Positions 2,233 to 21,703 of a DNA stretch of 64,000 nt are shown here, piece by piece. How positions within the stretch are numbered: the first letter of the stretch is position 1; the number at the start of each line of letters is the position of its first letter. Source of the DNA: Balanoglossus misakiensis (Eukaryota > Animalia > Hemichordata); NCBI GenBank assembly GCA_040954595.2, contig CM082579.2, positions 14,075,834-14,139,833 of the forward strand, in the 5' to 3' direction. The notes beneath the pieces are model-generated. The model was not told the DNA's origin. It worked only from the letters and a program-made list of their open reading frames with translations, and made no database searches. A program made the position numbers and the translations under genes.

Positions 2233-2306
2233 ACATAAACAACACTCTTACTTAGCAAAGGAAGTGGTCAGGTGAACTATATTCGCAGAGCTGACCAATT
2301 GTTTAA

Positions 2307-2649
2307 AGGGGCAAAGTCTCTCATCGCTGCCTTTTTTCAATTAATTATGTATGATACAAGACGCCATTGATGTTATTCTACATGTGGATATATGGTGAAT
2401 CAACATTCGACCACACACAACTTCCGTCTCGTTTGTACGATATGAGAGTAAAAACTCGCCCAAAATGAATAAATGGTAAAGAACGATTATTCATTTTGGC
2501 GAGTTTTTCACTCTCCTGTCTATAAGAGGGATGGAAGTTGTGTGTGGTTGAACGTTCATTCGCTATATATCCACATGTAGAATAACAAACGGTGTCTCTT
2601 ATCAAATATAATATGGGAAAAAGGGCAGCGAGAGAGAGACTTTGTCCCT
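2307..2649. mobile_element. Palindromic MITE, Kolobok-like (copy 1)
   Basis: Long inverted arms AGGGGCAAAGTCTCTC...GAGAGACTTTGTCCCT, with TTAA on the left only. Same family as 32532-32879. Confidence 0.75.
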
Positions 2650-2757
2650 CACATGGGGATTAAATGCACATGCGTGTGTATTTAAAGTTAACTGTAAATC
2701 CCCAGGTTAATACGTGGCCAAAAGCACTGTAATTTGGCATTTCTAATGATGGTGAGA

Positions 2758-2957
2758 TGTTGTTTGCTCCCCAGGGAGTTCAATGGAATATTTAGGTCCA
2801 ACATCCTAGGTCAAATGACCATGGGACAACTTAAAGCACGTTGAGATTTAATGTGCTACATAAGTTATAAATATTATAAAAATATTATTACATAAACAAC
2901 ACTCTTCCTTAGCAAAGGAAGTGGTCAGGTGAAATATATTCGCAGAGCTGACCAATT
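2758..2957 (+). repeat. Direct duplicate of ~2088-2300 (SINE tail plus flank)
   Basis: TGTTGTTTGCTCCCC...GCAGAGCTGACCAATT occurs on both sides of the MITE. Confidence 0.75.
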
Positions 2958-3182
2958 CTTTAAGGAAAATTAAAGTTGGGTAATTTGGATGTATTCATAC
3001 GAGTGTTGGTCAATGATAGGAAAGTCCTTTGTTCATTTTCAAAATGAAAACCAAAAATGCGAACAAAACACACTGAATTACGTATGGGATATTGATGTTG
3101 CCTAATTTGCGTGACTCTACATTTACTTAAACTCTCACAGGGAGACAAATGTCACAGCAAACGGAAAAATGATTATGCTAAG

Positions 3183-5117
3183 CAATACGCCAACCTTTAA
3201 AATATTACTTTAGAAAGTTTGTATTCATACTTTCTTCAAGTTGTCATAACGCTACCCCGAAATGTGTTTAAGTATTGCCTTTGTATTAATGGGCTAGATT
3301 CATGGCGTTATATGTCATAAATTAAAAAGCCAACCCTTATTGATTTTGATAATATTTATGTCGGAGAATCCACAATGAAAAATATGTATTTCAATTTCAT
3401 AACTCAAAATGATTTTCAAATCCATGACCTTATTTTCAACTCCAGTGATCGTACATCCTGAACCTTGTGCCAGTAAATGATTGGCCATTACAGGGTTAAT
3501 GGGCACTCTCCCGTTCTCTTCCTCCGCAGTTTCATTCATGTTCTTGTTTGACGGAAATGGGTGTGACCAGACGCTTGAATGTTTTCATGTGGGTGTCGTT
3601 GTTCATCAGGATCGGTCTCCTGGTGTGTCTGTACAGGTACGCAAGGAGAAACTGCCCACAAGAACCTGCGAGTGAAACTATTTAAGGTAGTATGTGCCTC
3701 GCGGTCTGAGATTCAGACAAATGATAGTCCTCAAAACTTTTTCAAGTCTTTGATTTACTAAAGTGTATGGTGAGTCTCTTTGAAAACAACAAAAACATTA
3801 CTCACCATATTGTTATTTTTTTGAAAGTTTAAAATGAAGTTGACAATGTACCAAACAGATTCTATTTATTTCTTCATGACCATGTTCACCCCAAGGTCAT
3901 ATGGACCTGCAAGTATATGCCAGAGCCAGAGTCGACATTACCGAAGCCAGAGTTCAAAGCTTGCAGGTCACCCCTTGCCAGCTCATGTCTAGCTAAACTG
4001 CCATGGATGCCAAGAGATATAGGACTACAGTAACCTGTAGATGGTTTCAGTATGTTTGAAGAAAGTGGTGGCACACTTTTGGCTACATTTGAAATGGCTA
4101 TGGTACCAGTGGTTGAATTTGCAAAGGTGACCTTTGACCTGGTATCATTAAAGATATTAAAGAACGATTGAACATTCCTTGTTGTCGTAAAATGACATCT
4201 GTAATAACTTATATTTTATCTGTTCATCTTGAAGTACTATATATTTAAACGCCAATTTTCCATTGCCAATCAATTTTTACAAATAAATTGTAATATGCAT
4301 GTTGATTTTACAAAAACTCCTTACTTCAAAGTGAATTCTGTTACACATCACGTAAATATTTTCCCCACGAATTCTTCAGTTGCTGACTCGGAAATTTCAT
4401 ATATTGGGCAGAAATTGGATACATTACCGAGCCATTAAAATTACAGTTTTCTATTTTAATTGATCTTCCATAACTTCAAGTACTTTGATTTGACATAAAT
4501 TAAAAACATCATGGTGAATAAATAAAAAATCTTTGATTATCTAATTGTGCATGTTTACATGGTTTTATTTTAGTATGCTGGGTACTTAATGTCTAATTGC
4601 TCGCTGATTTTATACTGTTCAAGATGACAATCTAATTTTAGTTTTCAGCTGATAATGGAAATTACTGATTAAAAAAATTGAATTTTGTCATGAATAAACT
4701 TGTTGTTCATGGCAGTTGCTGTATTTTGTTTCATGTGTATTCCATTTTTGCAAGAATACCATTGAGCTCAGTTTGATTTGATTAAACACGTTTATCGGAA
4801 AATTTTGTCATTTGAAATATCTGTTTTTGCGCCCTCTACCATTTGACCAAATGATTCTCTTATTTTGGTGGCCTTTGTCTGTGTATATGAGAATACTATA
4901 GTACTCTCGCATCGATGATAGTAGAAGTTGAAAACGTCTCTTGCCACGTGGCCTAGAAGAAAGGTGATCTTTAGAGTAAAATAAAACAAACTATCCAGAT
5001 AGGAAGCTAGAAAAGAAGTTGAATCGTTGAAATTTTATTTATTTTTATATTGTTAATATCGTTGGTGATGTTGACTGGCCGACAATCTTTGTCACACCAG
5101 TATTTGCAGGTAGATTA
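3183..5117 (+). repeat. ~1.9-kb direct repeat, copy 1
   Basis: Collinear, highly similar to 19975-21703 (CAATACGCCAACCTTTAAAAT...GACAATCTTTGTCACAC). Confidence 0.9.
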
Positions 5118-5364
5118 AAACATTGCCTATTCCAGCAATAATCACAACAGTCTTACTTTTTCTATCTTTGTAAGCGTTAATCTTTATTGACCTCGCTTGT
5201 TGTTTTGTGTTTTTGTGTTGGTTTTGTTTTTGTTTTGTTTTTTTAGTAGTTTCATAATTTTATTTGTATTTTTAAAATGTTTTCCTGTTTTTTGTTTACT
5301 TTTTTATTTTTTTTACTATTTGTTGATTGTAATGCTGTATGGGTCTCGACTGTCGGTCCCAACT

Positions 5365-6661
5365 TGTCATATAATTAGGTAGTACTGGAGTCAGTGGAAA
5401 CCCAGGTGCCCGCATAATTTCAGGTGTAGTGACACCGTGTATTGTCATGTTAATGAATATGGCTTCGTTAGCTAAGTTTCGTGTAGTAAGAGAGCACACT
5501 TCAATTTAGGTCTTGAAGGGAGCAACAAGTCGGGTCTCCCTGCTCAGTGAGTAGAAATACTAGGGGAAATATTGCACCATACCTTGCTGTGTCCATGTAA
5601 TGCTGTAGCGCGCATTAGTGCTCTCAGGACCACTGTTTCTGCAATTCGAGTGGAAGTAAATTGAGTACTTCTAGAAAGCAGAATTGTGCTTATTCAGTGC
5701 AAACCGGTGTGGTCGGGCGATTGGCGTGGCTGGCATGGTCGTATGTGGTGTGGCTGGAAATTGCTCCAAGCAGAGTTCTGTGGAACCATCCTATAGACCC
5801 GGTATTGCTGAGCATGAAGTGTGGTGAAGAATTCTCGTGTAAGTAATGTATTTGTTTATTTATTTACTATAACTTAAATTTATATTTTATGGATATTTAT
5901 GTCAAATTCGACAATTTGTAAGTAATAGGACGGTCATAGTTAAAGCATAATTTTCCATGATATCACATGTAATCATGACGCTTTAACTAGTCCAAATTTC
6001 TGATAATTATTATTGAGAAACGTCAGTATTCATTTGTGAACAGTTGCTAAGGTGGACATTTCAGTCAATGTTTGTTGATTTTTCATTCAGCCATTTAACC
6101 CAAGACTTGCATCTAACAAGTCAGTCTTCAGTGTGTTTACTTGACTACTGGAGGACTACAAGTGGTAGAAAACATGGTGTATCACAGATTGTATGTGTAA
6201 TGTGGATCGTCGCTACATCGTTCATCTATACAGGACTCCATCCCATATTGTGGTTGAATCATGATTGTTTACTATGAATGTTTTATACAGCTAAGTGACA
6301 CTTACCATTGTTTAGACAATATGCAATAGACAATAAACTATAGTGATATTGTGAATATATTCATTTATGTAATATATTAAGTAACCCATTGTATTGTATG
6401 ACCAATTGTATCAGCATACCTGTACCTGCTAAATTGGTTAGGACAGAGACATTTGATATTGTGCATATTGTGCACAAAAATTATATTCCTAGTATTATCT
6501 TTATATTATTTAATTGATTTAAATTAAATCAACTGTATTATTGTATCCGCACTGGTTTGTGTAGTTTCTCCCCATACCTTATCCACGGATGTTTACTCCT
6601 TGGCACTGAGAGCTGCTCAATATTTATCCTGGAATCAGAGGGGTGCCCTCCACCTCTGACA
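5365..6661 (+). repeat. Putative 5' LTR
   Basis: Ends TGACA 2 nt before the PBS (firm). Candidate start TGTCA at 5365 is its inverse; AATAAA at ~6332. No second LTR is available to confirm the start. Confidence 0.45.
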
Positions 6662-6663
6662 TT

Positions 6664-6680
6664 TGGGGGCTCGTCCGGGA
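6664..6680 (+). promoter_or_regulatory. Primer binding site complementary to the tRNA-Pro 3' end
   Basis: TGGGGGCTCGTCCGGGA, the canonical tRNA-Pro PBS, lies just after the LTR-terminal CA. Confidence 0.9.
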
Positions 6681-6999
6681 GTTTTATCGTTTTGTTGTGC
6701 ATTTGTTTGTATACTATCATAAATTGTTGCCATATAGTGGAGACCATGGTTTTGATAGGTAGAGATTCTGCAAATTGTGAAGACGGTGCTGGGTCTGTAG
6801 GCTGGTACTGTTACTGTATGTGCGCTTGTGGTTTCCTGCTATATAATATGGGCCGTGTTGGTTTGCGTCGTGCGTTTGGCTGTGTTGACTTGTGCTGAAT
6901 GCCCTGTACTGCTAGGGGTTGTCAAACTGGGGGTTGTAAATCGCGATACAGCAAAGCATATATGCAGAAAGAATATCTAAGATAGGGAGAAAATTTGGG

Positions 7000-8772
7000 T
7001 TGGAAGGGACTGCTTTAAAAGATTATGTTAGAGAGGAACAAATTAGACAGAGGGATCTTAGGGCTACTGAGAGAGAGGAGCAGAGAGAAGATAATAGGCG
7101 GCGCGAGGAACATGAGAGAGAGATACTGAAAATGCAAATTCACTTACAAGAATTAAAATTGAAAGGGGAAAATACAGAACAGCAGGTTACTGAAAATAAT
7201 TTGGCCAAAGCGCGTGCTCCGAGACTACAGGGTTTACGTGAGGATGTTGATGATATGGATGCGTACCTTCAACGTTTTCAGCGCTACGCCACTGCTCAGA
7301 AGTGGGAAAAAGATGACTGGGGGTGAATCTCAGTGCATATTGTTACAAGGTAAGGATGTATCCACATACAACCAAATGCCTGCAGCGTCTGCAAATAATT
7401 ATGATGAATTGAAACCAGAGTTATTGAGGGCTTACCAGTTAAGTGAGGAGAGTTTTCATGACAAGTTCCGTTCGTGTATGCCACATTATGATGAAAGTGC
7501 TCAAAAGTTTATGGACCGTATTGGTGACTATTTGGGCAGATGGGTAGAACTGGCTGGTACTCCAAAGACGTACAATGGGCTTACAGATCTGTTACTTCGA
7601 GAGCAGTTTATTGGAGTATGTTCCAGAGACATGGCAATGTTCATTAGAGAGCGACGGCCAGAGAATGTCCAAGAGATGGTATCTACTGCCTCAAAATACT
7701 TAGATGCCCGAGGGTGGTGGAAACTGCCAAGTAATGCCAAGAATAATCCAAGGAGCCAGCCGACAGCAAATACCAAGCCTGCTGTATATCCAAATCAAGT
7801 AAATAAGTTTAATAACAAAACCAATGGTTCCCATGTTTTTAAAGGTACGTGCTTCGTATGTGGTAAAGGTGGTCATATGGCCAAAGATTGTAGAAGTAAG
7901 CCAAAGATGCATAAGACGGCGGTATTGTTAACTGAAGAAGATAGAAACTATCCACCTAAACAAGAATGTACACATTGGGGCAACCGTCGACAGCCCAGGG
8001 GACTAGACACTGGTTATGCATGTATGGTGGTAGCAATGGAAATAGATAAAACAGATGCAACACTGAATAAGGAGTTCGTGTTACCATGTGGTCATAAGCT
8101 CCCAGTGATGAGTGCTGCTTGTAGTGCCCATGGAGTGAAGAAGATGCCGGTAATGAAGGGATTGGTCGATGGTAAGCTGGTTAGCGTTTTGCGTGATAGT
8201 GGGTGTAGTAGCGTGGTAGTTCGAAGAAGTCTGGTGTCAAGTAATCAGCTGACTGGTGAGTACAGGACATGTGTTCTGATAGATGGGACTATTAGAAGAG
8301 TACCTGTAGCCTCTATAAAAGTTGATACCCCTTACTTTGTTGGTGATGTTACTGCACTGTGCATGATGAACCCTGTGTATGATTTAATACTGGGCAACAT
8401 TGATGGTGTATCTGACCCTTCGAATCCTGATACTACATGGCAGGAACCATTGCCGACATGTAGACTGTGTACAACTGTTGGACAGGTACCAGGTTTAGCA
8501 AATGCTGTGGAGACCAGAGCCCAGAAGATAGCCAACCAAAAACCAATCAGAGAGCTTAAAGTACCTAAAGCTGTTGGTGAAGTGGTGATGCCAGGGAAGC
8601 TTCAACAAGCTCAAGAAGAAGACTCCACTCTTGACAAACTACGTGAGAAGGCAATTTTGGGTGACGAGAAAGTGACTAGGAATGGAGGTAGGTTGAAGTT
8701 CATCATGAAAGATGGGATCCTGTACAGAGAGTTCAATTCGCCAATGGTCCAATTTGGTGAAAAGCTGTTACA
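7000..8772 (+). pseudogene. gag-pol: Gypsy gag-protease and start of the integrase region (frameshifted near 7320)
   Basis: DMDAYLQRFQRYA Gag N-terminus, capsid/SCAN-like LLLREQF, zinc knuckle CFVCGKGGHMAKDC, protease LRDSGCS, YDLILGN, and Q..D..L linker. The ORF-track C-terminus after 8772 is read-through into the insert. Confidence 0.88.
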
Positions 8773-8812
8773 CACTGCGGGAAATACTAGAGCTATGTTG
8801 GGCAGTATTCCG
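8773..8812 (+). repeat. Left bipartite terminal inverted repeat
   Basis: CACTGCGG + 18 nt + TGGGCAGTATT (8799-8809) + CCG. Confidence 0.88.
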
Positions 8813-8856
8813 CGAAGCGCGAGCTCCCATGTTCACCATAGCAACGCATTGCCAAG

Positions 8857-9507
8857 ATGGCGGCGCCCGTGTTGATCGATGCCGAGAAAGTTATAAAACG
8901 CAAATTGCGAGAGGCAAAATCTGTGCTTAAACGTAAAAAATGCGTGTCGGACAATCTGTATATACACCCACTCTTTGATGAACTTGAGGATGTGACAACA
9001 AGGGCCATATTTCGAAACGACAAGCTGTCAAAGGACAAGATTCGTTGGCGTGACGTCGCCGTATTTCCCATGTTTCAGCGTGATATGACCTACTGGCAGA
9101 AGACCTTCTACGCTCGGCTGTCAACATCCCCGTCGTTAAGGTCACCATGGCAAAGCAGCTTTACACAACAAATGCCGAGGGAAGTATTTGATGTTTTTCA
9201 TCAGTTTGCTACTCGGACCGGTTTTGGTATCGACGAGAAGACCTCCAGGGCTATCATAACCTTGACCTTCACAAGTTCCTCGAAGCTATTGTATGTGATA
9301 CGGAAAGGTTATTGCTACGAGGGCGCTATCGGTCAGCATACAGAGAATATCCTAGAGAAGAAAGTCCGTGGAAAGAGGGTAGCTGTTATATGCACACCTG
9401 AGAAGCCCTGTGTTGTGAAATATTTTATCAACAGGGAGACTGTTGCTGTTAGATTCAGCTTTGGTGCCTGGAACAAACATGGAATTCCATTACATCCAGA
9501 GAACTGA
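8857..9507 (+). CDS. Transposon-borne 216-aa basic protein of unknown function, convergent with the transposase
   Basis: Uninterrupted ORF in AT-rich DNA with a strong start context GCCAAGATGGCG, 84 bp from the left end. K/R-rich NLS-like N-terminus; AATAAA at ~9636. No kelch or PHD pattern. Confidence 0.72.
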   Translation: MAAPVLIDAEKVIKRKLREAKSVLKRKKCVSDNLYIHPLFDELEDVTTRAIFRNDKLSKDKIRWRDVAVFPMFQRDMTYWQKTFYARLSTSPSLRSPWQSSFTQQMPREVFDVFHQFATRTGFGIDEKTSRAIITLTFTSSSKLLYVIRKGYCYEGAIGQHTENILEKKVRGKRVAVICTPEKPCVVKYFINRETVAVRFSFGAWNKHGIPLHPEN

Positions 9508-10359
9508 ACCCTATTGATTTTTCACACTGATTCAACCCATCTGACGAACATTTTTTTCCTGATCTGTGGCACATGTTGTTCAGTGTAGATGTATCAGTCT
9601 GTCAAGACAGTTCTCTCACAATTGACATATATTCAAATAAAAAAAGGAAAATTAGAAGACTCAAAAATTCATCACTTGTCTTTATTTATCTACATTCAAT
9701 ACAAATGAACAGATAACGTTTACAAAATTTCCTAAACTGTAAAATTCTTTTTTTCCATCATTATTGTAACATAGATTTTTCATTAGTTTCAGAAAAAAAT
9801 GTATGTTACCTACAATCAACATTGATAAGTCAATCAAAACTGCTCATCTAACAGTTAACCAGGATTTCTGGTCTAAATTTAATTAATATTTACAATTAAT
9901 TCCATGACAAAATTTATAAATATCAAGAATTTGATGAGACTTAATTCTTTATTTTTTCACAAATTCATTAAAATTTCGTGCAGGTGCAGAATAAACAACT
10001 CCTCAAGAAAAATGTAAAACTTTTCTATCAAGCTTATGTATGTCATACATTTTAATTTTGCAAAGCACTGCAATCACTATACGATTAAGGGTTTATTCAC
10101 AATACTTAATAGTGGTAAGATAAGTTTCAATTTCCCTGTCCCCATACATGCACACATATACAAAATCCCATAAGAAACATATCATCTCCAGTTCAAAAAG
10201 TGTGAATTCATGTGATTTGTGATCTCCATTTTTATTAAATGCAGCTCTCAACTACACATGAGTCTTTGTAATTCTGTAATGTAATTAATACCATAGTTAT
10301 CCTTTAATTCTAAAGTAGCACACAGTGACACAATCCACTGTTTCAAATTCAATCATTGT

Positions 10360-12600
10360 TCACAGCATAAGTTTCTTGAGTTTATTTGATATTTTACCAG
10401 TGACAGCTGCTTTTTTTATGTCATCCATAATTGGGTCAACACATATTTCACAGGCAGTCATTGTTTCATTTTTCAAATTGCCACACATACAGTAGCCTGC
10501 ATTCTCATAATATCGACTGGGAATGTATTTTTCTTTTTCTTTAAGCTCAAATTGACCTACATTTGCCCTTCTATAGTTGTCAGCTTTTGGACTTTTGTTC
10601 CTCAGCCAAAAAAGCATCACATATTCGTGTCGAAATATGAGGGCCCACCTATTTTGAGGTGTAGAATTTTCACTGAATTCTAGCAGGCGTAGATGCTTTG
10701 CCTCTCTGCCTTCCATTGTGTTTAGGCCTAATCCCAGACTGAATTGCTTATAGATACTAGTGGTGTGTTTTGGGACTACATAACCAATGTGCCACACAGT
10801 ATTATTGACATTCAGAAACAGGGAATGTAGATTAAAGTACCACCGACACTTATGCCTAAGTACAAGCAAATCTCCCTCATTTATGTTGAATCGTGAGAAT
10901 AACAAAGTGATATCTCTAAGCAAGATACCAGTATATGTGTAGAGAGCTAATTGAGCCCGACGCTTTGGACTGTCTGTATCGCTTCTCAATGCTAATACCA
11001 ATCCCATGAAATGCCAAGCAAGTTTGCGAGACTCCTCACCAGTGAAGCGATAAACCACATTAATGTTGGCATTTGACTTGACACTATTTTCATTGAAGTA
11101 TTTTACAATCTTATTATACAACTTTCCAGCTTTTACTTGATATTTTAGGGCAGACAGGAATTTGTACAGATATGACTCGTTAGGTAGATTCTCAATTTTA
11201 ACTCCATTTTAACGACCCTTTTCCGAAGTGTGGGCAACTGCGTCAATCAGTAATCGTTGGAAGTAGTATTGCCATGCATTGTTCTTTAAATGCAATGGCT
11301 CAGCCTTGGCACAATCAATAAATCTACCCAACGGTGGTACAAATTCCTGTCTTGACCTCAGACTGGCTATAAATTGTGTGATTTTGGGTCGCACTGTTTT
11401 GGGCTTTCCAGTTTTAATTTTCTTAGTTGACTTCAACTTTTCAACAGCTTCTGCATCTTTAATTCTTTTCTGATATTTCCATTCATCCCACTTCTGACCT
11501 GGGCCAATTTCTGCTCCAATACAATCAATATCATTTTTGGAAACGTTAGCAAATGAGCTGAAATACTTTGCTGCATTGCTTAGTTCTCCAGACACACTGG
11601 CCAATCCCTTCTGATCAAAGGGTAAAAGTGACACCTGAAAAGTTACATCAAGACTGCCAACTTTATATTTACGTTTCTCAATACACTCAAGGTCTTTTGA
11701 CAATGCAATTGCAAATTCAATCATTATGGGGTCATCCTCTTTTATGTTTGCCCCTAATAGGAGAAAATTGTGGTCTGGGCTAGCAACACGGTGGGTCACA
11801 TTCAAGAAACTAACTAGCCATGCAGTGGCCTGTCCATGTTTGCCAAACGGAGCCCCGTCAGCACCTATACTGATTTGAAATGAGCCCTCCTGTTTACCGA
11901 ACCAGTTAAGAATATCAGGCTGTGTTTCCCCCATATTTAAATATAAACTGGCAATCTTAATAAGCAACTCCTCAGGGTTTCTTTTTAAGCCGACTTGTTT
12001 GCCTTCAGATGATATAATTGGCTCAAGATTTCCAATGTCAAGGTTACTTACATACTGTACAACTTTTGTGTATGGGAGCAGTCTTGGTATTCTACAGCCA
12101 GAATGAATTTCTAATGCTTTCCTAGGATGTTTCAAGTTGGAGAACATCTGAAGTTCACTCTGCCTCAGACAGTTATATTTTCGTTTGGATAGTACTCCGC
12201 CCTCATACATAGTTCTGACACTCCTCACCAAATTGTTCTCACTTTTCTCAAATTTACTGATGTATTTATCAAATACTGATGGCATTACTTTTTTACTGAT
12301 TTGGGGAGAGGTTCTGAAGTATGTTTTCATTTGGTCAGGAGTGGCAGAATTAACAAGAGTATACCACAAACCATCAAGTGCTGCTTTTGGTGGATGTAGT
12401 ACATTCGGTTTATTTATACCTTTGGCTGGGCTTACATCTGTAGTTGCTACATGAATATTTATGGCTGCTGATAAGGTTTCACACCTACGTTCATACTGTT
12501 GACGTCGCGACAGCTTCAAAGATTCACTATTATCTGCACATACTTCAGTGTTCTTGTGGACCCATTTAGAGCGTTTCACATTAACATCATCAACAGGAAT
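10360..12600 (-). pseudogene. RAG1/Transib/Chapaev-like DDE transposase, main exon (one in-frame TAA at 11209-11211)
   Basis: ORFs 11209-12579 and 10360-11121 share a frame and the gap translates openly. Motifs in RAG1 order: LSRRQQYERR, LSKRKY, IGADG (D 11857-59), FDQK (D 11614-16), EPLHLK, MEGREAKH (E 10702-04), C-terminal CxC...CxxC. Phase-0 acceptor TTTCAG at 12601. Confidence 0.85.
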
Positions 12601-12953
12601 CTGAAAGATTAAGTGTGTGATAAATATATACTAATTAGAATATAATCATTATATATAAAATAAAATCTTCTTACAAGTTAATCATTAATTTAAATGTCCT
12701 TGATAAGAAATACACACGTGTAGCCTGTATTTTTCTGACAACTTCTGCAATAAAAATCCTAAAAAATATATATAGTTTGTTGGAAAACCTAGATGTTTTG
12801 CATCAAAGCTGAACCCATTTTGTTATCATTGTTTACACAGGATCATGTGACATGAAGTTCAAAAAGCGAATTTGGGCTAAAATTTGAAGAGGATTTATAC
12901 AAATCTGAGATTTTTAAAATTATGACTAAGTCTATTTATCTGATGTAGCTTAC

Positions 12954-13393
12954 CTTTCTCTTATTATTCTTTGTAGCTAAGATCTCACAAATCTTACTGT
13001 TCTTCTTCTCTAGTCTAGCTGGGTTGAGGATCTTTTTACTAGTCTCCTAGCTGCACTCAACTTATTCAACTTATCCTGAATTATGCTTTCTTCCTCATCT
13101 CTCTTTCTCTTTCTCTGTCTACACCACTCTCCTAAGTTAAACCTGTGTTTAGTCTGTCCTCTCTTTGTTCTAACTACCAATAGGTTGTTGGCCACGCTCC
13201 CAGACAAAGATCTAGTCTTCAATTTCTCCTGATATAGTTGTTGCAAACACTTCTCTTCAGCTACCTGTCCCGCTATCTTTTGGTCCTTTGCCCACTGGCC
13301 TATGTTGAAGTAACTTTTCCCTTTTCTATTCGGCATAACAATAGACAAACTTTTAAGAAGTGCGCTACTCCTGTTGAATAGTTTGCCCCACAT
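12954..13393 (-). pseudogene. N-terminal coding exon of the transposase (frameshifted by a 5-bp duplication)
   Basis: ORF 13010-13426. Removing one TCTAG of the tandem at 13009-13018 extends it (LEKKNSKICEILATKNNKRK) to a phase-0 AG|GTAAG donor at 12954/12953, matching the 12601 acceptor. Start is ATG 13393 or 13336. Confidence 0.7.
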
Positions 13394-14201
13394 GGCTCTA
13401 AATCTATACCTGAAAAGGGTGAACAAGAGAAATATCTTTACAATAATTATCTATCCGAGGGAAGCAAAAACAAAACACCTGCTCATTATACTTCCTCCAG
13501 AAATTGAGGTCAAAGGTGACATAGAAAGAATGTGGGTAACCTTACCATAACAATCTCGCCCGTTCATTTTTTTCTTATTTCGTTTTCACCCTCGAATTTC
13601 CAGCGAATTATATCAAGAATATATTTTAGCACAAACTATTGGTTTCTGATTTTTCAGTTACGGTCTTATTTTCTGTCAATTCTATGAACAATATCACCAT
13701 GTCGCTGAAAATTCGAAGCGCCGCCATTACAATCAATGTAACCCGTGCTGCTGCCAAGGAACACACAGGGTCGTATATTTTCGCTTGGTATGATTTCGTC
13801 ATATTGCTTGTAGCAGCATTTTAAACATGGAATCCTATGTTTACGTATAAAAGACTAAATTCGTATGGTTTTCAAATTGAAAAAAACAATTCTGTGAAGC
13901 TGAATCGTTGTAATTTTTAGTGTTTGTTTATGGTTGCTTAGGACGGCTTCTGCTATAGCAACGGCCAGGGACTGTCAGCGGGTGATCAAAATGTTCAAGT
14001 TATTTGGCTGATACACATAAATAACACAGCAGAATCGCAACTTTATTTCATATTGTCTCTGACATCTTGCTAATTTTACTAAACAAAACTTGGAATAAAG
14101 CAATATTACTCACCGAATTATGCTGTGCATCGACAGCTGTGTTCGATCGCGAACGCCATTACTGTGTCTAATTAAATATTCATGAGCTTCATAGGCTGCC
14201 A

Positions 14202-14242
14202 CGGAAATACTGCCCATAGGTGGCGTCGTTCAAGCTGTAGTG
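14202..14242 (-). repeat. Right bipartite terminal inverted repeat
   Basis: Reverse complement reads CACTACAG + 18 nt + TGGGCAGTATT (14206-14216) + TCCG. Confidence 0.88.
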
Positions 14243-14245
14243 ACA

Positions 14246-15872
14246 GGTGGTGGTTCCCAGAGTGTATCGTAACCAGGTGATGAGACTAGCCCATGAATCA
14301 GTGCTGGGTGGTCACCACGGAACTCACAAGACCACAGACAAGATCCTCAGCAACTTCGTTTGGCCTGGGCTAACATCAGATGTTTCCCGTTACTGTCAGT
14401 CCTGTGATTCATGTCAACGGACACAACCAAAGGGACGGGTGACCAAGGTACCACTTGGAAGTATGCCACTAATAGATATCCCTTTCCTACGTATTGCAGT
14501 AGACCTGGTTGGCCCTATTCATCCATGCACTGAACGCAAGAATAGGTACATACTTACTGTTGTTGATTATGCAACACGCTATCCGGAGGCTGTTGCATTG
14601 ACTAACATTGATACCAAGACTGTTGCAGAGGCGCTCCTGGACATCTACTCAAGAGTGGGGTGTCCACGTGAAATTCTGACAGATCAAGGAACTCAATTTA
14701 CATCAGATGTGATGCGTGAGGTCAGCCGGCTTTTGTCTATAAAGCAGAAGACTACCACCCCATACCACCCAGCATTCAATGGTCTAGTGGAACGGTTCAA
14801 TGGTACATTGAAACTCATGCTCAGGAAGATGTGTGAGGAACGTCCAACATATTGGGATCGTTATCTGAATGCTTTACTATTTGCCTACAGAGAAACGCCT
14901 CAATCGAGCACAGGATTCTCTCCGTTTGAGTTACTTTATGGGAGGAGTGTGCGTGGTCCAATGGCTATCTTGAAAGAACTATGGACTGGAGAGATCAGTG
15001 AACCAGAAACCAAAACGACTTATCAATACATCCTTGATCTTCAAAAGAAATTAAAGAAGGCATGCGATTTAGCAAGACAAGAACTGAAGATATCACAAGG
15101 CAAATACAAGTCCTACTACAATAGAAAGGCCAAATGGAGGAAGTTCAACAAAGGTGACGAGGTGTTATTGCTACTACCTACTGACCATAATAAACTACTT
15201 ATGCACTGGAAGGGTCCTTTTCCAGTGGTGGAGAAAGCGAGCAATATGGATTACAAGATTGACTTTGGTCATAGGGTGAAAACATTCCATGCCAACCTGT
15301 TGAAGAGGTACTATCGAAGAACTGATCAGCTAGATGAAGTATCAGCTGGACTTCTTGAGATTGTGTGTGTATCTGTGATAGATGAGCAGAGTTATGAATC
15401 TTCAGAAGTACAAGAGAACACAGGGGTTAAAGTAAACGATGACTTACTGCGGGTTCCTGCATTCAAGCAGAAAGAATTTGCTGCAGATGTGAATGTATGT
15501 GACAACTTGTCAGACATACAGGAGCAAGTGGTGAGGAGGTTGCTGATCAATTACAAAAATATGTTAACTGATATTCGTGGTAACACCAACCTGGGTTTCC
15601 ATGACATCAAGTTGATGGATCCAACACCAGTATGCAGTAGGCCATACCCCATCCCTCATGCACTCCGTGAAGCAGTGAAAGATGAAGTCAAAACGATGAT
15701 TAAGATGGGAGTAGCTGAACCTTCAGAGAGTCCATATGCTGTTCCACTGGTAATGGTGAAGAAATCTGATGGGTCCAATCGTTGTTGTGTTGACATGAGA
15801 AAGCTCAATCGCATAACAGTGTTTGATGCAGAGCCTACACCAGACCTGAGTGAGCTTTTTGCTTTTTGCTAA
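14246..15872 (+). pseudogene. pol: Gypsy pol: integrase (HHCC, DDE core, GPF motif) followed by the RT N-terminus
   Basis: LAHESVLGGH...CQSCDSCQ, AVDLVGP, LTDQGTQF, NGLVERFN, WKGPF; then PYPIP, SPYAVPLVMVKK, CVDMRKLN. Confidence 0.92.
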
Positions 15873-16255
15873 GTTATCCAAGGATCACTATTTCACTAAA
15901 GTAGATCTCAGCAAAGAATATTGGCAAGTCCCGTTGACTGATAATTCTAAACAATTGACGGCATTTATCACGCATGATGGGCTATACCAATTTATCAAAA
16001 TGCCTTTCGGACTTGTAAATAGTGCTGCGACTTTTAGCAGAATTATGAGAAGATTGTTAAGAGATATGAAGAACGTAGACAACTATATCGATCACATACT
16101 GATCCACACTGCATCATGGGAAGAACATATCAAGACAATTACAGATTTGATGAGCAGACTACGAAAGGCAAAGTTAACAGCTAGACCAACTAAGTGTTAT
16201 GTGGGTTATGAGCAGATCGATTTCCTGGGTCATGTGGTTGGTCATGGTGAACTAG
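15850..16255 (+). pseudogene. pol: Gypsy reverse transcriptase core (frameshifted, catalytic motif mutated, truncated)
   Basis: DLSKEYWQV, MPFGL, YIDH (YIDD expected), FLGHVVG. The frameshift comes from a 7-bp tandem GCTTTTT duplication at 15854-15867. Confidence 0.9.
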
Positions 16256-16299
16256 TCCTGTTTCAAAATGACCTACATTACAGGTCGTATGCACACGTA

Positions 16300-16610
16300 T
16301 TACATGTTCTGATTGGTTTATCCACTTCTCTATGGTCCACTTGCGGCTCGCTGATTGGAGGGACCTTATGTGTTAGGTCTTATTACTATGTATTATTCAC
16401 CAGACCTTGTAGGTTAGGTCTTATTACAATGCATTATTCACTTTACAGCTCCCTGATTGGTTAATGTGTAGGTCTGGTCCTCCAGTGTTCACTGCCTCAT
16501 TATGCAGGACCTTGTAGGTTAGGTCTTATTAATATGTATTTATTCACCATACAGCTCCCTGATTGGTTAACGTGTCAGTCTGGTCCCCCCCAGTGTTCAC
16601 TGCCTCATTG
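16300..16610 (+). repeat. Degenerate ~105-bp tandem repeat at the Gypsy truncation point
   Basis: GACCTTGTAGGTTAGGTCTTATTA...CTCCCTGATTGGTTAA...CAGTGTTCACTGCCTCATT occurs twice, with partial copies upstream. Confidence 0.7.
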
Positions 16611-19861: not shown

Positions 19862-19974
19862 GCGTTAACATAACTTTATCAGAATAAGTTAACGCCATAA
19901 CTTTGACAGAATAAGAGTTGCCTCAAACGGCTCTAACCGAATTTCCATTAATAGCAGAACAAACAAGCTGTAAT

Positions 19975-21703
19975 CAATACGCCAACCTTTAAAATATTAC
20001 TTTAGAAAGTTTGTATTCATACTTTCTTCAAGTTGTCATAACGCTAACCCGAAATGTGTTTTAGTATTGCCTTTGTATTAATGGGCTAGATTCATGGCGT
20101 TATATGTCATAAATTAAAAAGACAACCCTTATTGTTTTTGATAATATTTATGTCGGAGAATCCACAATGAAAAATATGTATTTTCAATTTCATAACTCAA
20201 AATAATTTCCAAATCCATGACCTTATTTTAGGTACGCAAGGAGAAACTGCCCACAAGAAGCTGCGAGTGAAACTATTTAAGGTAGTATGTGCCTCGCGGT
20301 CCGAGATTCAGACAAATGATAGTCCTCAAAACTTTTTCAAGTAATTGATTTACTAAAGTGTGTGGTGAGTCTCTTTGAAAACAACAACAATATTACTCAT
20401 CATATTGTAATTTTTTGAAACTATAAAATGAAGTTGACAATGCACCAAACAGATTCTATTTATTTCTTCATGACCATGTTCACCCCAAGGTCCTGCAAGT
20501 ATATGCCAGAGCCAGAGACGACATTACCGAAGCCAGAGTTTAAAGCTTACAGGTCACCCCTTGCCAGCTCATGACTAGCTAAACTGCCATGGATGCCAAG
20601 AGATATATGACTACGGTAACCTGTAGATGGTTTCAGTATGTTTGAAGAAAGTGGTGGCGCACTTTTGGCTACATTTGAAATGGCTATGGTACCAGTGGTT
20701 GAATTTGCAAAGGTGACCTTTGACCTGGCATCTTTAAAGATATTAAAGAACGATTTACCATTCCTTGTTGTCGTAAAATGACATCTGTAATAACTTATAT
20801 TTTATCTGTTCATCTTGAAGTACTATATATTTAAACGCCAATTTTCCATTGCCAATCAAGTTTTTACAAATAAATTGTAATATGCATGTTGATTTTACAA
20901 AAACTCCTTACTTCCAAGTGAATTCTGTTACACATCACGTAACTATTTTCCCCACGAATTCTTCAGTTGCTAACTCGGAAATTTCATATATTGGGCAGAA
21001 ATTGGATACATTACCCAGCCATTAAAATTACAGTTTTCTATTTTAATTGATCGTCCATAACTTCAAGTACTTTGACTTGACATACATTAAAAACATCATG
21101 GTGAATAAATAAAAATTATTTGATTATCTAATTGTGCATGTTTACATGGTTTTATTTTAGTATGCTGGGTACTTAATGTCTAATGGCTCGCTGATTTTAT
21201 ACTGTTCAAGATGACAATCTAATTTTAGTTTTCAGCTGATAATTGAAATCAATGATTCAAAAAAATTGAATTTTGACATGAATAAACTTCTTGTTCATGG
21301 CAGTTGCTGTGTTTTGTTTCATTTGTATTCAATTTTTGCAAGCATACCATTGAGCACAGTTTGATTTGATTAAACACGTTTATCGGAAAATTTTGTCATT
21401 TGAAATATCTGTTTTTGCGCCCTCTACCATTTGACCAAATGATTCTCTTATTTTGGTGGCCTTTGTCTGTGTATATGAGAATACTATAGTACTCTCGCAT
21501 CGATCATAGTAGAAGTTGAAAACGTCTCTTGCCACGTGGCCTGGAAGAAAGGCGATCTTTAGAGTAAAAAAAACAAACTATCCAGATAGGAAGCTAGAAA
21601 AGAAGTTGAATCGTTGAAATTTTATTTATTTTATATTGTTAATATCGTTGGTGATGTTGACTGGCCGACAATCTTTGTCACACGAGTCTTTTCAGGCAGA
21701 TTA
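19975..21703 (+). repeat. ~1.7-kb direct repeat, copy 2 (lacks ~200 bp equivalent to ~3437-3634)
   Basis: Collinear with 3183-5117; runs directly into the satellite. Confidence 0.9.

Follow-up and report, generated by a model that had tools for sequence, protein, structure and literature searches.

Two-part ends of a DNA transposon with a predicted RAG1/Transib-type transposase fold in the hemichordate Balanoglossus misakiensis

The element and its two ends

The window analysed here is a stretch of 64,000 nucleotides from Balanoglossus misakiensis (assembly GCA_040954595.2, contig CM082579.2, positions 14,075,834 to 14,139,833 of the forward strand). It contains a whole cut-and-paste DNA transposon that carries a transposase gene and a second, shorter gene, termed ORF2, and that is bounded by ends in which a terminal block and an inner block are separated by a spacer (Table 1). 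The tips of this element are its real boundaries. The flanking duplication matched at a length of 3 alone, with lengths of 2, 4 and 5 failing. When positions 8773-14242 and one ACA were excised in silico, the plus-strand open reading frame (ORF) ending at 8772 was fused in frame to the ORF starting at 14247. The ORF that runs into the left tip encodes a SCAN-like gag, a zinc knuckle and a protease, and the ORF that begins 5 bases past the right tip encodes an integrase zinc-binding domain followed by the integrase core. The ACA repeat together with the in-frame rejoining therefore identifies a 5,470-bp insertion within the integrase gene of a retroelement.

The right end was read as the reverse complement of 14206-14242 and compared with the left end without gaps. 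This gave 6/8 matches in the terminal 8-mer, 4/18 in the spacer and 11/11 in the 11-mer of the inner block. The spacer value is at the level of unrelated sequence (P(≤4 | p = 0.25) = 0.52), the corresponding probability under a repeat that is 90% alike being 2e-11. With up to one mismatch allowed, the 11-mer occurs twice in the 64 kb, both times at an end of the element and in inverted orientation, compared with an expectation of 0.32 occurrences; 3/100 shuffles reached two. Both copies begin at position 27 from the CAC tip, and chance would not give such a placement. A preliminary description of the left end, made from the letters of the window, had claimed a conserved tip, a free spacer of 18 bases and a conserved 11-mer that starts at position 27 at both ends while the spacers are unrelated, all of which is confirmed by these comparisons. 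The extent that it gave, 8773..8812, holds in that the two-part end is real, but position 8812 falls inside an extension of the inner block. Allowing for one indel (TATT-CCG versus TATTTCCG), the two ends stay alike for a few bases more, which gives an inner block of approximately 14-16 bases. Each end of the window element has a single inner block and no subterminal repeat arrays.

The sequence GGAAATACT was observed at 8780-8788, in the left spacer, and in the same plus-strand orientation at 14203-14211 within the right inner block, so that the left end holds an inverted partial second copy of the inner block. This second copy is possibly a chance occurrence, and none of its type is present in the diverged relative from the same organism described below. 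A hairpin between 8777-8788 and 8804-8814 at the left end was rejected after DNA folding gave a z of -0.55, with 55/200 shuffles equally stable.

Table 1. Features of the transposon, in positions of the window; 5' and 3' ends are named relative to the transposase gene.
Feature	Position	Strand	Basis
Whole cut-and-paste DNA transposon, 5,470 bp	8773..14242		CAC...GTG tips; 3-bp flanking repeat; host ORF restored upon removal
Target-site duplication ACA, left copy	8770..8772		Same letters as 14243-14245
Target-site duplication ACA, right copy	14243..14245		Same letters as 8770-8772
Terminal 8-mer CACTGCGG, left (3' end); predicted cleavage site	8773..8780	+	6/8 identical with other tip
18-base spacer GAAATACTAGAGCTATGT, left	8781..8798	+	4/18 matches with right spacer
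Inner block, left: 11-mer TGGGCAGTATT (8799-8809) and CCGCG extension	8799..8814	+	11/11 identical with other end; family-wide GGC register
Terminal 8-mer CACTACAG, right (5' end), read inwards	14235..14242	-	Comparison of tips
18-base spacer CTTGAACGACGCCACCTA, right, read inwards	14217..14234	-	Comparison of ends
Inner block, right: 11-mer TGGGCAGTATT (14206-14216) and extension	14201..14216	-	Comparison of ends
Main transposase exon, 756 codons, one in-frame TAA at 11209-11211	10360..12630	-	ORFs; 74% identity to Ptychodera flava protein; invariant acidic residues
Tentative first coding exon, begins MPNRKGKSYF	13013..13336	-	Resembles by eye the start region of Nematostella relative P0057
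ORF2, 216 amino acids, accessory gene convergent with transposase gene	8857..9507	+	tblastn in relatives; precomputed PF26709 on homologues

Ends of related elements

A relative from the same organism was found on a 1,123-base read contig that differs from the window at 20/114 positions over 8798-8911. Counting back without gaps from 8798 puts CACTACGG in the register of 8773-8780. Between this tip and the inner block lies a third 18-base spacer, sharing 7/18 and 3/18 positions with the left and right spacers of the window respectively, while the 11-mer is the same as that of the window and the flanking DNA differs. The contig matches the window over 8798-8911, omits 8912-9457 (most of ORF2), matches again over 9458-9505 and then diverges; it probably represents a non-autonomous or otherwise organised subfamily. 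A search of the read contigs for the right end gave only source-like contigs and no diverged relative, and has no weight either way.

More distant relatives were taken from 80 metagenome loci (L numbers) encoding proteins that are 32-50% identical in the best segment. Element limits were set where near-identical copies on separate contigs cease to be alike (L012 668-8048, L016 590-7313 and L021 3232-8328), with additional limits from an inverted-repeat search starting from CAC/GTG. The tips of the delimited relatives all start with CACGCYGGG. A hand-picked compilation of 31 ends, 29 from the loci and two from the window, was drawn from 71 pattern matches by excluding matches within the transposase gene, same-family duplicates, matches of the L012:1513 and L016:1082 types, and L018:6941, L023, L035, L064, L070 and L075:3257. 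CAC is present in 31/31 of these ends, and their information content has a trough over positions 10-22, with maxima at 23-26 and 29-33. The tips read CACTG and CACTA in the window and CACGC in the 29 cnidarian-type ends.

The same 71 matches were also reduced by rule, first to 53 located outside the gene and facing inward and then to 32 non-redundant ends of relatives at ~35-40% protein identity, ends alike at ≥40/45 positions being counted as redundant; this set retains the L018 deletion variant, the internal match of the L009:905 type and L023. Information in the 32 ends is 0.1-0.5 bit at positions 10-22, rises to 0.6-1.0 bit in an A-rich run at 23-26 and is 0.5-0.9 bit at 29-33 (GGCMA, sum 3.6 bits), with ≤0.5 bit at every later position up to 60. 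Twelve ends have a GGC beginning at position 29 and one has it at 28, any other given position accounting for three at most, and at least two of G29, G30 and C31 are present in 25/32. The search pattern itself prescribes positions 1-5 and 9, which leaves the inner block alone as independent in this count. The window has T27 followed by GGGCAG (28-33), in the same register as the GGCMA of the family.

For ten elements both ends were available. Identity between the 5' and 3' ends is 0.94 over positions 1-9, 5-9/10 through position 15 and 2-5/10 at most of positions 16-28 (6-7/10 at 22, 23 and 26), returns to 9/10 at 29, 31, 32 and 33, and drops to 0.26-0.32 past position 34. The two blocks are therefore a general design, with one register for both ends. 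Since this register is equal at the 5' and 3' ends in 10/10 elements, one end being shifted by 1, the spacing is symmetric, and the symmetry claimed in the preliminary description (18/18 in the window) is upheld. The alignment of copies and relatives that it had proposed as a check likewise came out in its favour: the copy in the same organism keeps the 18-base length with an unrelated spacer, and the 32 distant ends keep the block at 29-33. Its free spacer of 18 bases applies to the window and to the same-organism copy but not to the cnidarian-type relatives, in which the terminal block is longer and the freely varying stretch (~16-28) is shorter.

Exact 3-bp duplications flank 6/13 copies checked, compared with an expectation of 1/64 per copy: ACA in the window, TAG in L018, ATT in L028, AAT in L065, AGC in L066 and GAT in L074. 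A 5-bp duplication fits none of the 13.

Several further features of the ends were observed in the relatives. L018 (6941) and L016 (7313) are sister copies that are ~99% alike and provide a natural spacer-length mutant, yet L018 has a matching 3-bp duplication; it may be a dead copy. An inward-facing sequence resembling a terminus, CACGCCGGG..., is present at L012 1513 (also L009 905, L010 4552, L011 901, L013 3240 and L014 1759). It lies 845 bases inside the 5' end and resembles the 3' end (36/45) more than the true 5' end does (26/45), and elements of the L012 type may be composites, or their outer 5' end may be a later acquisition. Beyond the repeats the 5' and 3' ends are unlike each other: the motif CAGCGG occurs at positions 52-68 in 9/15 3' ends (L002, L008, L012, L019, L021, L022, L065, L066 and L074) and within the first 130 bases in 2/16 5' ends. 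ATGGCG, the start of ORF2, is located at 75-107 in 14/15 3' ends and at positions 84 and 85 from the two tips in the window. Both motifs may be promoter elements.

Transposase, predicted fold and second gene

The transposase gene is read on the minus strand as stretches of 473 and 282 codons in a single frame, parted by the sole TAA. At 11211, Logan contigs that span this insertion site, obtained from one sample in two runs, carry a different letter at full depth and read through, so the stop appears to be private to the window allele or copy. Those contigs differ from the window element at ~25 further places. The window copy also has I296, compared with C in 34/38 relatives. For the tentative first exon the support from tblastn was weak, with a best E of 0.004.

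Of 7,996 candidates scored in a word-index protein search, 237 proteins reached E ≤ 1e-3. The top match was an 'uncharacterized protein' of Ptychodera flava at 74% identity; the remaining matches were 34-45% identical, and those with a source name came from sea anemones and corals. An exhaustive HMMER search with a 38-sequence profile (A1) gave 3,284 cluster representatives (50% identity) at E ≤ 1e-3, 700 of them at E ≤ 1e-30, and the best 150 of the 3,284 matches are all plain family members. This puts the family at a minimum of 3,284 clusters at 50% identity; its members come from cnidarian-type metagenome contigs and from a genome for which the top match was a hemichordate protein. Residues D258 (GADGAPFG), D339 (D-x-K), E643 (M-x-G-R-E-A-K-H), L446 and H447 are invariant in the 38 sequences of A1, and C714, C716, C727 and C730, which form a C-terminal CxC...CxxC cluster, are present in 37-38/38.

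A Pfam scan of the window recognised neither the transposase nor the ORF2 protein, and no Pfam domain was found in any of the 237 matched proteins. Scanning the 38 members against a library without the newest RAG1 domain models gave no match to any transposase family at E ≤ 1, and a lead to DUF1280 likewise gave no Pfam match at E ≤ 1 among them. With no Pfam match, the label 'uncharacterized protein' borne by the named matches here is probably the only annotation that copies have received. A literature search, with Repbase Reports and Dfam outside its scope, gave no description of this family, whether by its terminal 9-mers or as RAG1-like cnidarian elements with accessory genes.

The structure of the transposase was modelled with AlphaFold2 on A1, giving a mean predicted local distance difference test (pLDDT) score of 85.5 and a predicted template modelling (pTM) score of 0.82. 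Comparison with the PDB using Foldseek gave 49 matches at E ≤ 1e-3, and 49/49 were RAG1 (best 2e-13), BbRAGL or HzTransib; the next match was the P element transposase at E 0.036. A second, independent structural aligner, VIA, run all-against-representatives, superposed residues 125-683 of the model on RAG1 474-1027 with a Z of 22.0 (466 residues aligned, root-mean-square deviation (rmsd) 4.0), followed by BbRAGL (Z 20.2), HzTransib (Z 14.3), P element (Z 11.0), ISCth4 (Z 7.4) and Hermes (Z 5.7). For one RAG1 chain, in which the nonamer-binding domain is present, the alignment began at model residue 75 (Z 18). The transposase is thus predicted to have the RAG1 core fold, comprising an RNase H-like DDE domain, large helical insertions and a C-terminal domain. 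The fold match of the model would put it in an assemblage of RAG1/Transib and CMC (Chapaev, Mirage, CACTA/EnSpm) transposases, not necessarily beside RAG1.

ORF2 begins 85 bases from the left tip. With the window protein as query, tblastn matched 34/80 related loci at E<1e-3, and one more, the 35th, had an E of 0.002; the loci with no match are mostly short contigs. ORF2 in these loci always lies downstream of the transposase gene, on the opposite strand and adjoining the 3' end, with its start codon wandering between positions 78 and 132. The proteins are ~205-240 amino acids long, most start with M-A, and they have a C-terminal Y-G-x-W-N-x-x-G motif. The precomputed family PF26709 is carried by 20/20 database homologues, an accession for which no mention was found in the literature searched. 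In the L074 element (2276-7160, duplication GAT) both genes are open, with the transposase (746 amino acids) encoded at 3344-5584 and ORF2 at L074 6428-7054 (minus strand). The model of ORF2 consists of three helices and a small alpha/beta domain. A RAG2-like propeller was rejected given this composition and the lack of a PDB match, and an Argonaute/PAZ-like assignment was not adopted, being a weak language-model lead with no fold support.

Interpretation of the ends and genomic setting

The ends of the element are best interpreted as two-part recombination signals resembling recombination signal sequences (RSS), belonging to a cut-and-paste transposon whose transposase has a predicted RAG1/Transib fold. 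This interpretation is in part by analogy, and a probability of about 0.5 is assigned to it. The catalytic core would hold and cut the CAC-led tip. By analogy with RAG1 and Transib the tip would be nicked, a hairpin would form on the flanking DNA, and integration would follow with a 3-bp stagger. The inner block, approximately three helical turns in (positions 27-37 in the window; GGCMA at 29-33 after the A-rich 23-26 in the family), would offer the enzyme a second, sequence-specific contact by which it is positioned, giving the separate cleavage and binding sites inferred in the preliminary description. Its likeliest reader would be a DNA-binding module of the transposase itself, for which the candidate is the set of N-terminal helices superposing on the RAG1 nonamer-binding region and, less likely, the C-terminal Cys4 finger. 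The bases between the blocks are constrained in number and free in identity. The same spacing at both ends means that there is no 12/23-type asymmetry. The position of the block is tied to the cut site and not to the gene, as its distance from the tip is maintained across elements that differ in the position of the ORF2 start codon.

Several observations weigh against this interpretation. The inner core shared across the family is short, approximately five bases and an A-rich run, and 7/32 ends carry fewer than two of the three GGC letters. Conservation of the terminal 9-mer in the rule-based set is partly built in by the search pattern. The 5' end of L074 is displaced by 1 base, and the 3' end of L018 has a 9-base deletion in the spacer compared with its sister copy L016. 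No 3-bp duplication was found in 7/13 copies (L008, L012, L013, L016, L019, L021 and L041), all of which are on metagenome contigs, where mis-joining of the flanks of multi-copy elements during assembly is suspected. The superposition resembling the nonamer-binding domain comes from one VIA row only, with an rmsd of 7.1. The 38-sequence profile gave no RAG1 or Transib at E ≤ 10 among all PDB sequences, and the Pfam scans of the 38 members, with a library that lacks the newest RAG1 models, gave no link to RAG1 or Transib. No CMC transposase is known to have a solved structure. The fold is possibly common to all CMC transposases, so that the match does not assign the family to a position beside RAG1 specifically. 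The analysis establishes the boundaries of the element and its 3-bp duplication, the two-block architecture, the register common to the relatives and the prediction of the fold; the steps of the reaction, the role of D258, D339 and E643 as a catalytic triad and the identity of the module that reads the inner block are inferred.

The same architecture would result if the inner block were read by the ORF2 product, acting as an end-recognition subunit that recruits a RAG1-fold catalytic subunit, but this is considered unlikely. In plant En/Spm elements end-binding (TnpA) is separate from catalysis (TnpD), which counts for such a division, as do the fixed convergent position of ORF2 adjoining the 3' end across the family (34/80 loci, E<1e-3), its intactness in the complete L074 element and the alpha/beta domain in its model (pLDDT 82.3). 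Language-model features of ORF2 also give a weak hint of Argonaute N/L1/PAZ-type nucleic-acid-binding regions (score 0.93, 151 shared features, low recognition). However, the ORF2 model has no Foldseek match in the PDB at E ≤ 1e-3 and only a helical hairpin in VIA (Z<8), no DNA-binding family was recognised for it in Pfam scans, and the transposase holds candidate DNA-binding modules itself. In another reading the inner block would be mainly a host-factor or promoter element instead of a transposase contact, both ends being followed closely by a gene that reads inward. PMC7481187 provides a precedent in ProtoRAG, where the TR5, or inner 9-mer, GCCATCTTG overlaps a YY1 motif and YY1 aids end targeting. 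Some inner blocks of the relatives read GCGCCATTTC or GCGCCATCTC (L016, L030), i.e. GCGCCATYTC, and ATGGCG/CGCCAT lies within 130 bases of 14/15 3' ends and 11/16 5' ends. Most inner blocks are instead GGCCA followed by A, C or G, or other variants lacking the CCAT core, which is also absent from the window block GGGCAGTATT. The block holds its place with respect to the tip, unlike the start codon (78-132), and the clear ATGGCG motifs are located elsewhere at variable distance, the one at the 3' end being the start codon of ORF2. A mainly host-factor or promoter role is on this balance quite improbable.

That a once-continuous inverted repeat has decayed in the window copy and that its spacer is an accident is scarcely credible. 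The copy is damaged, with one in-frame stop in the transposase gene, but decay would not leave 11/11 and 6/8 matches around 18 consecutive positions at chance level. The relative from the same organism has a third unrelated spacer of equal length, and the low-high conservation pattern recurs in the 32 ends of distant relatives. A continuous repeat that had merely decayed in this copy was the refuting case named in the preliminary description, and it is contradicted by the same-organism relative, the ten two-ended elements and the 32 ends.

The preliminary description had compared the ends with the V(D)J RSS and ProtoRAG, and this comparison is borne out by the predicted fold: as the transposase is predicted to have the RAG1 fold, the comparison is more than analogy. 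As in the V(D)J RSS, the signal has two parts, with an invariant CAC at the cut site and a spacer whose length outweighs its sequence, and the predicted enzyme fold matches (Z 22.0, 466 residues). The V(D)J RSS differs in being a host signal rather than the end of a mobile element and in having 12/23 asymmetry; its inner block is ACAAAAACC, compared with the GGC-centred block here, and the partner here is, by its model, no RAG2-like propeller. The conserved Cys/His pairs that we take to form the RAG1 zinc site are absent from the 38-sequence alignment.

Transib ends consist of a CACAATG heptamer, a variable 23 bases and an A-rich nonamer, with 12/23 pairs in some families and a 5-bp duplication (Kapitonov & Jurka 2005, PMC1131882). 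They resemble the present ends in the CAC-led block, the variable spacer of fixed length and the second block with an A-run, and the transposases share a RAG1-type fold, here predicted (HzTransib Z 14.3). Unlike the classic Transib arrangement of heptamer, 23 (or 12) and nonamer with a 5-bp duplication, the family has 8-9, ~18-19 and GGCMA in one spacer class at both ends with a 3-bp duplication, shows no detectable sequence similarity to the solved Transib or RAG1 chains, and has an extra conserved gene. In ProtoRAG the ends comprise TR1, a TRsp of 27/31 bp and TR5, and spacer length was important in assays (PMC8289069). ProtoRAG/RAGL elements of the lancelet and other invertebrates (PMC8289069, PMC7481187) have, like the present family, two convergent genes, one for a RAG1-fold transposase (BbRAGL Z 20.2), together with a heptamer-like terminal block, a length-sensitive spacer, a conserved inner block and promoter activity in the end regions. 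They differ in the RAG2-like Kelch propeller encoded by their second gene, in the 5-bp duplication compared with 3 bp here, in the unequal spacers of 27 and 31 bp compared with equal ones here, and in the YY1 motif, which most inner blocks here lack.

The present family shares with CMC elements the 3-bp duplication, the CAC...GTG tips and the LH motif (L446 and H447, invariant). Chapaev elements are recognised by 3-4-bp duplications, 5'-CAC...GTG-3' tips and three transposase motifs, namely C(2)C, LH and H(4)H (PMC4079192), and an N-terminal Chapa zinc-finger domain is described in PMC4411706 and 10.64898/2026.01.24.700457. Neither C(2)C nor H(4)H is conserved between the second D and the E in the 38 sequences, in which the sole conserved Cys cluster is C-terminal. 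No Cys/His is conserved in the N-terminal 200 columns except H60 (28/38), although upstream exons may have been missed; a Chapa finger is also absent from the full-length Nematostella relative P0057, and long relatives have no N-terminal Pfam domain. The window tips CACTG and CACTA fit the CACTA signature, while those of the relatives are CACGC instead. The TnpD-type transposase domain of CACTA/EnSpm elements corresponds to Pfam Transposase_21. Unlike these elements, 0/38 members match any transposase Pfam family at E ≤ 1, and the inner block occurs once per end with no subterminal arrays. Variants with a 3-bp duplication exist inside Transib, where duplication length and tip sequence vary (10.64898/2026.08.26.747230), and tests of duplication and tip therefore do not settle ancestry. 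The transposon family shares its end logic and predicted fold with Transib and ProtoRAG, and its duplication length and tips with CMC. Elements of this type may have been entered in Repbase or Dfam with a CMC label. The kind of signal is already known from Transib, the RSS and ProtoRAG; the family varies it with a single spacer class, a 3-bp stagger and a partner gene of its own.

Rather tentatively, the family could be a third, so far unnamed branch of RAG1-fold transposons beside Transib and RAGL, with a partner other than RAG2 and an RSS-like signal of a single spacer class. The origin of V(D)J recombination has been traced to transposons with RSS-like ends, so far on the basis of Transib and ProtoRAG/RAGL, and a further abundant family that combines CAC tips, a second block and a counted spacer with a RAG1-type fold, yet has a 3-bp duplication, one spacer class and another partner gene, would be an independent data point. 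It would help to part features linked to the fold (two-part signals, a ruler-like spacer) from later additions (RAG2, 12/23 asymmetry, the 5-bp stagger). If the proposal is true, a CAC block, a counted spacer and a second block would be an old general property of RAG1-fold enzymes that preceded RAG2 and the 12/23 rule. Natural copies that appear intact, the one in L074 among them, make this directly testable and would offer biochemistry a new two-component cut-and-paste system.

The transposon lies inside a long terminal repeat (LTR) retroelement whose direct repeats of ~1.9 kb, at 3179-5117 and 19971-21703, are ~16.6 kb apart and 90-98% alike in the listed pieces. The retroelement ORFs (7163-8772, 14247-15872 and 15850-16461) encode gag (SCAN-like), zinc knuckle and protease, integrase, and reverse transcriptase, and the reverse transcriptase and integrase frames differ. 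The order of domains is copia-like with gypsy-type domains, which we take to be as in Gmr1-like elements. A tandem array follows directly after the right LTR, from 21676 to beyond 30000, with units of ~76-78 bases, a higher-order unit of ~842 bases and up to 48 copies listed.

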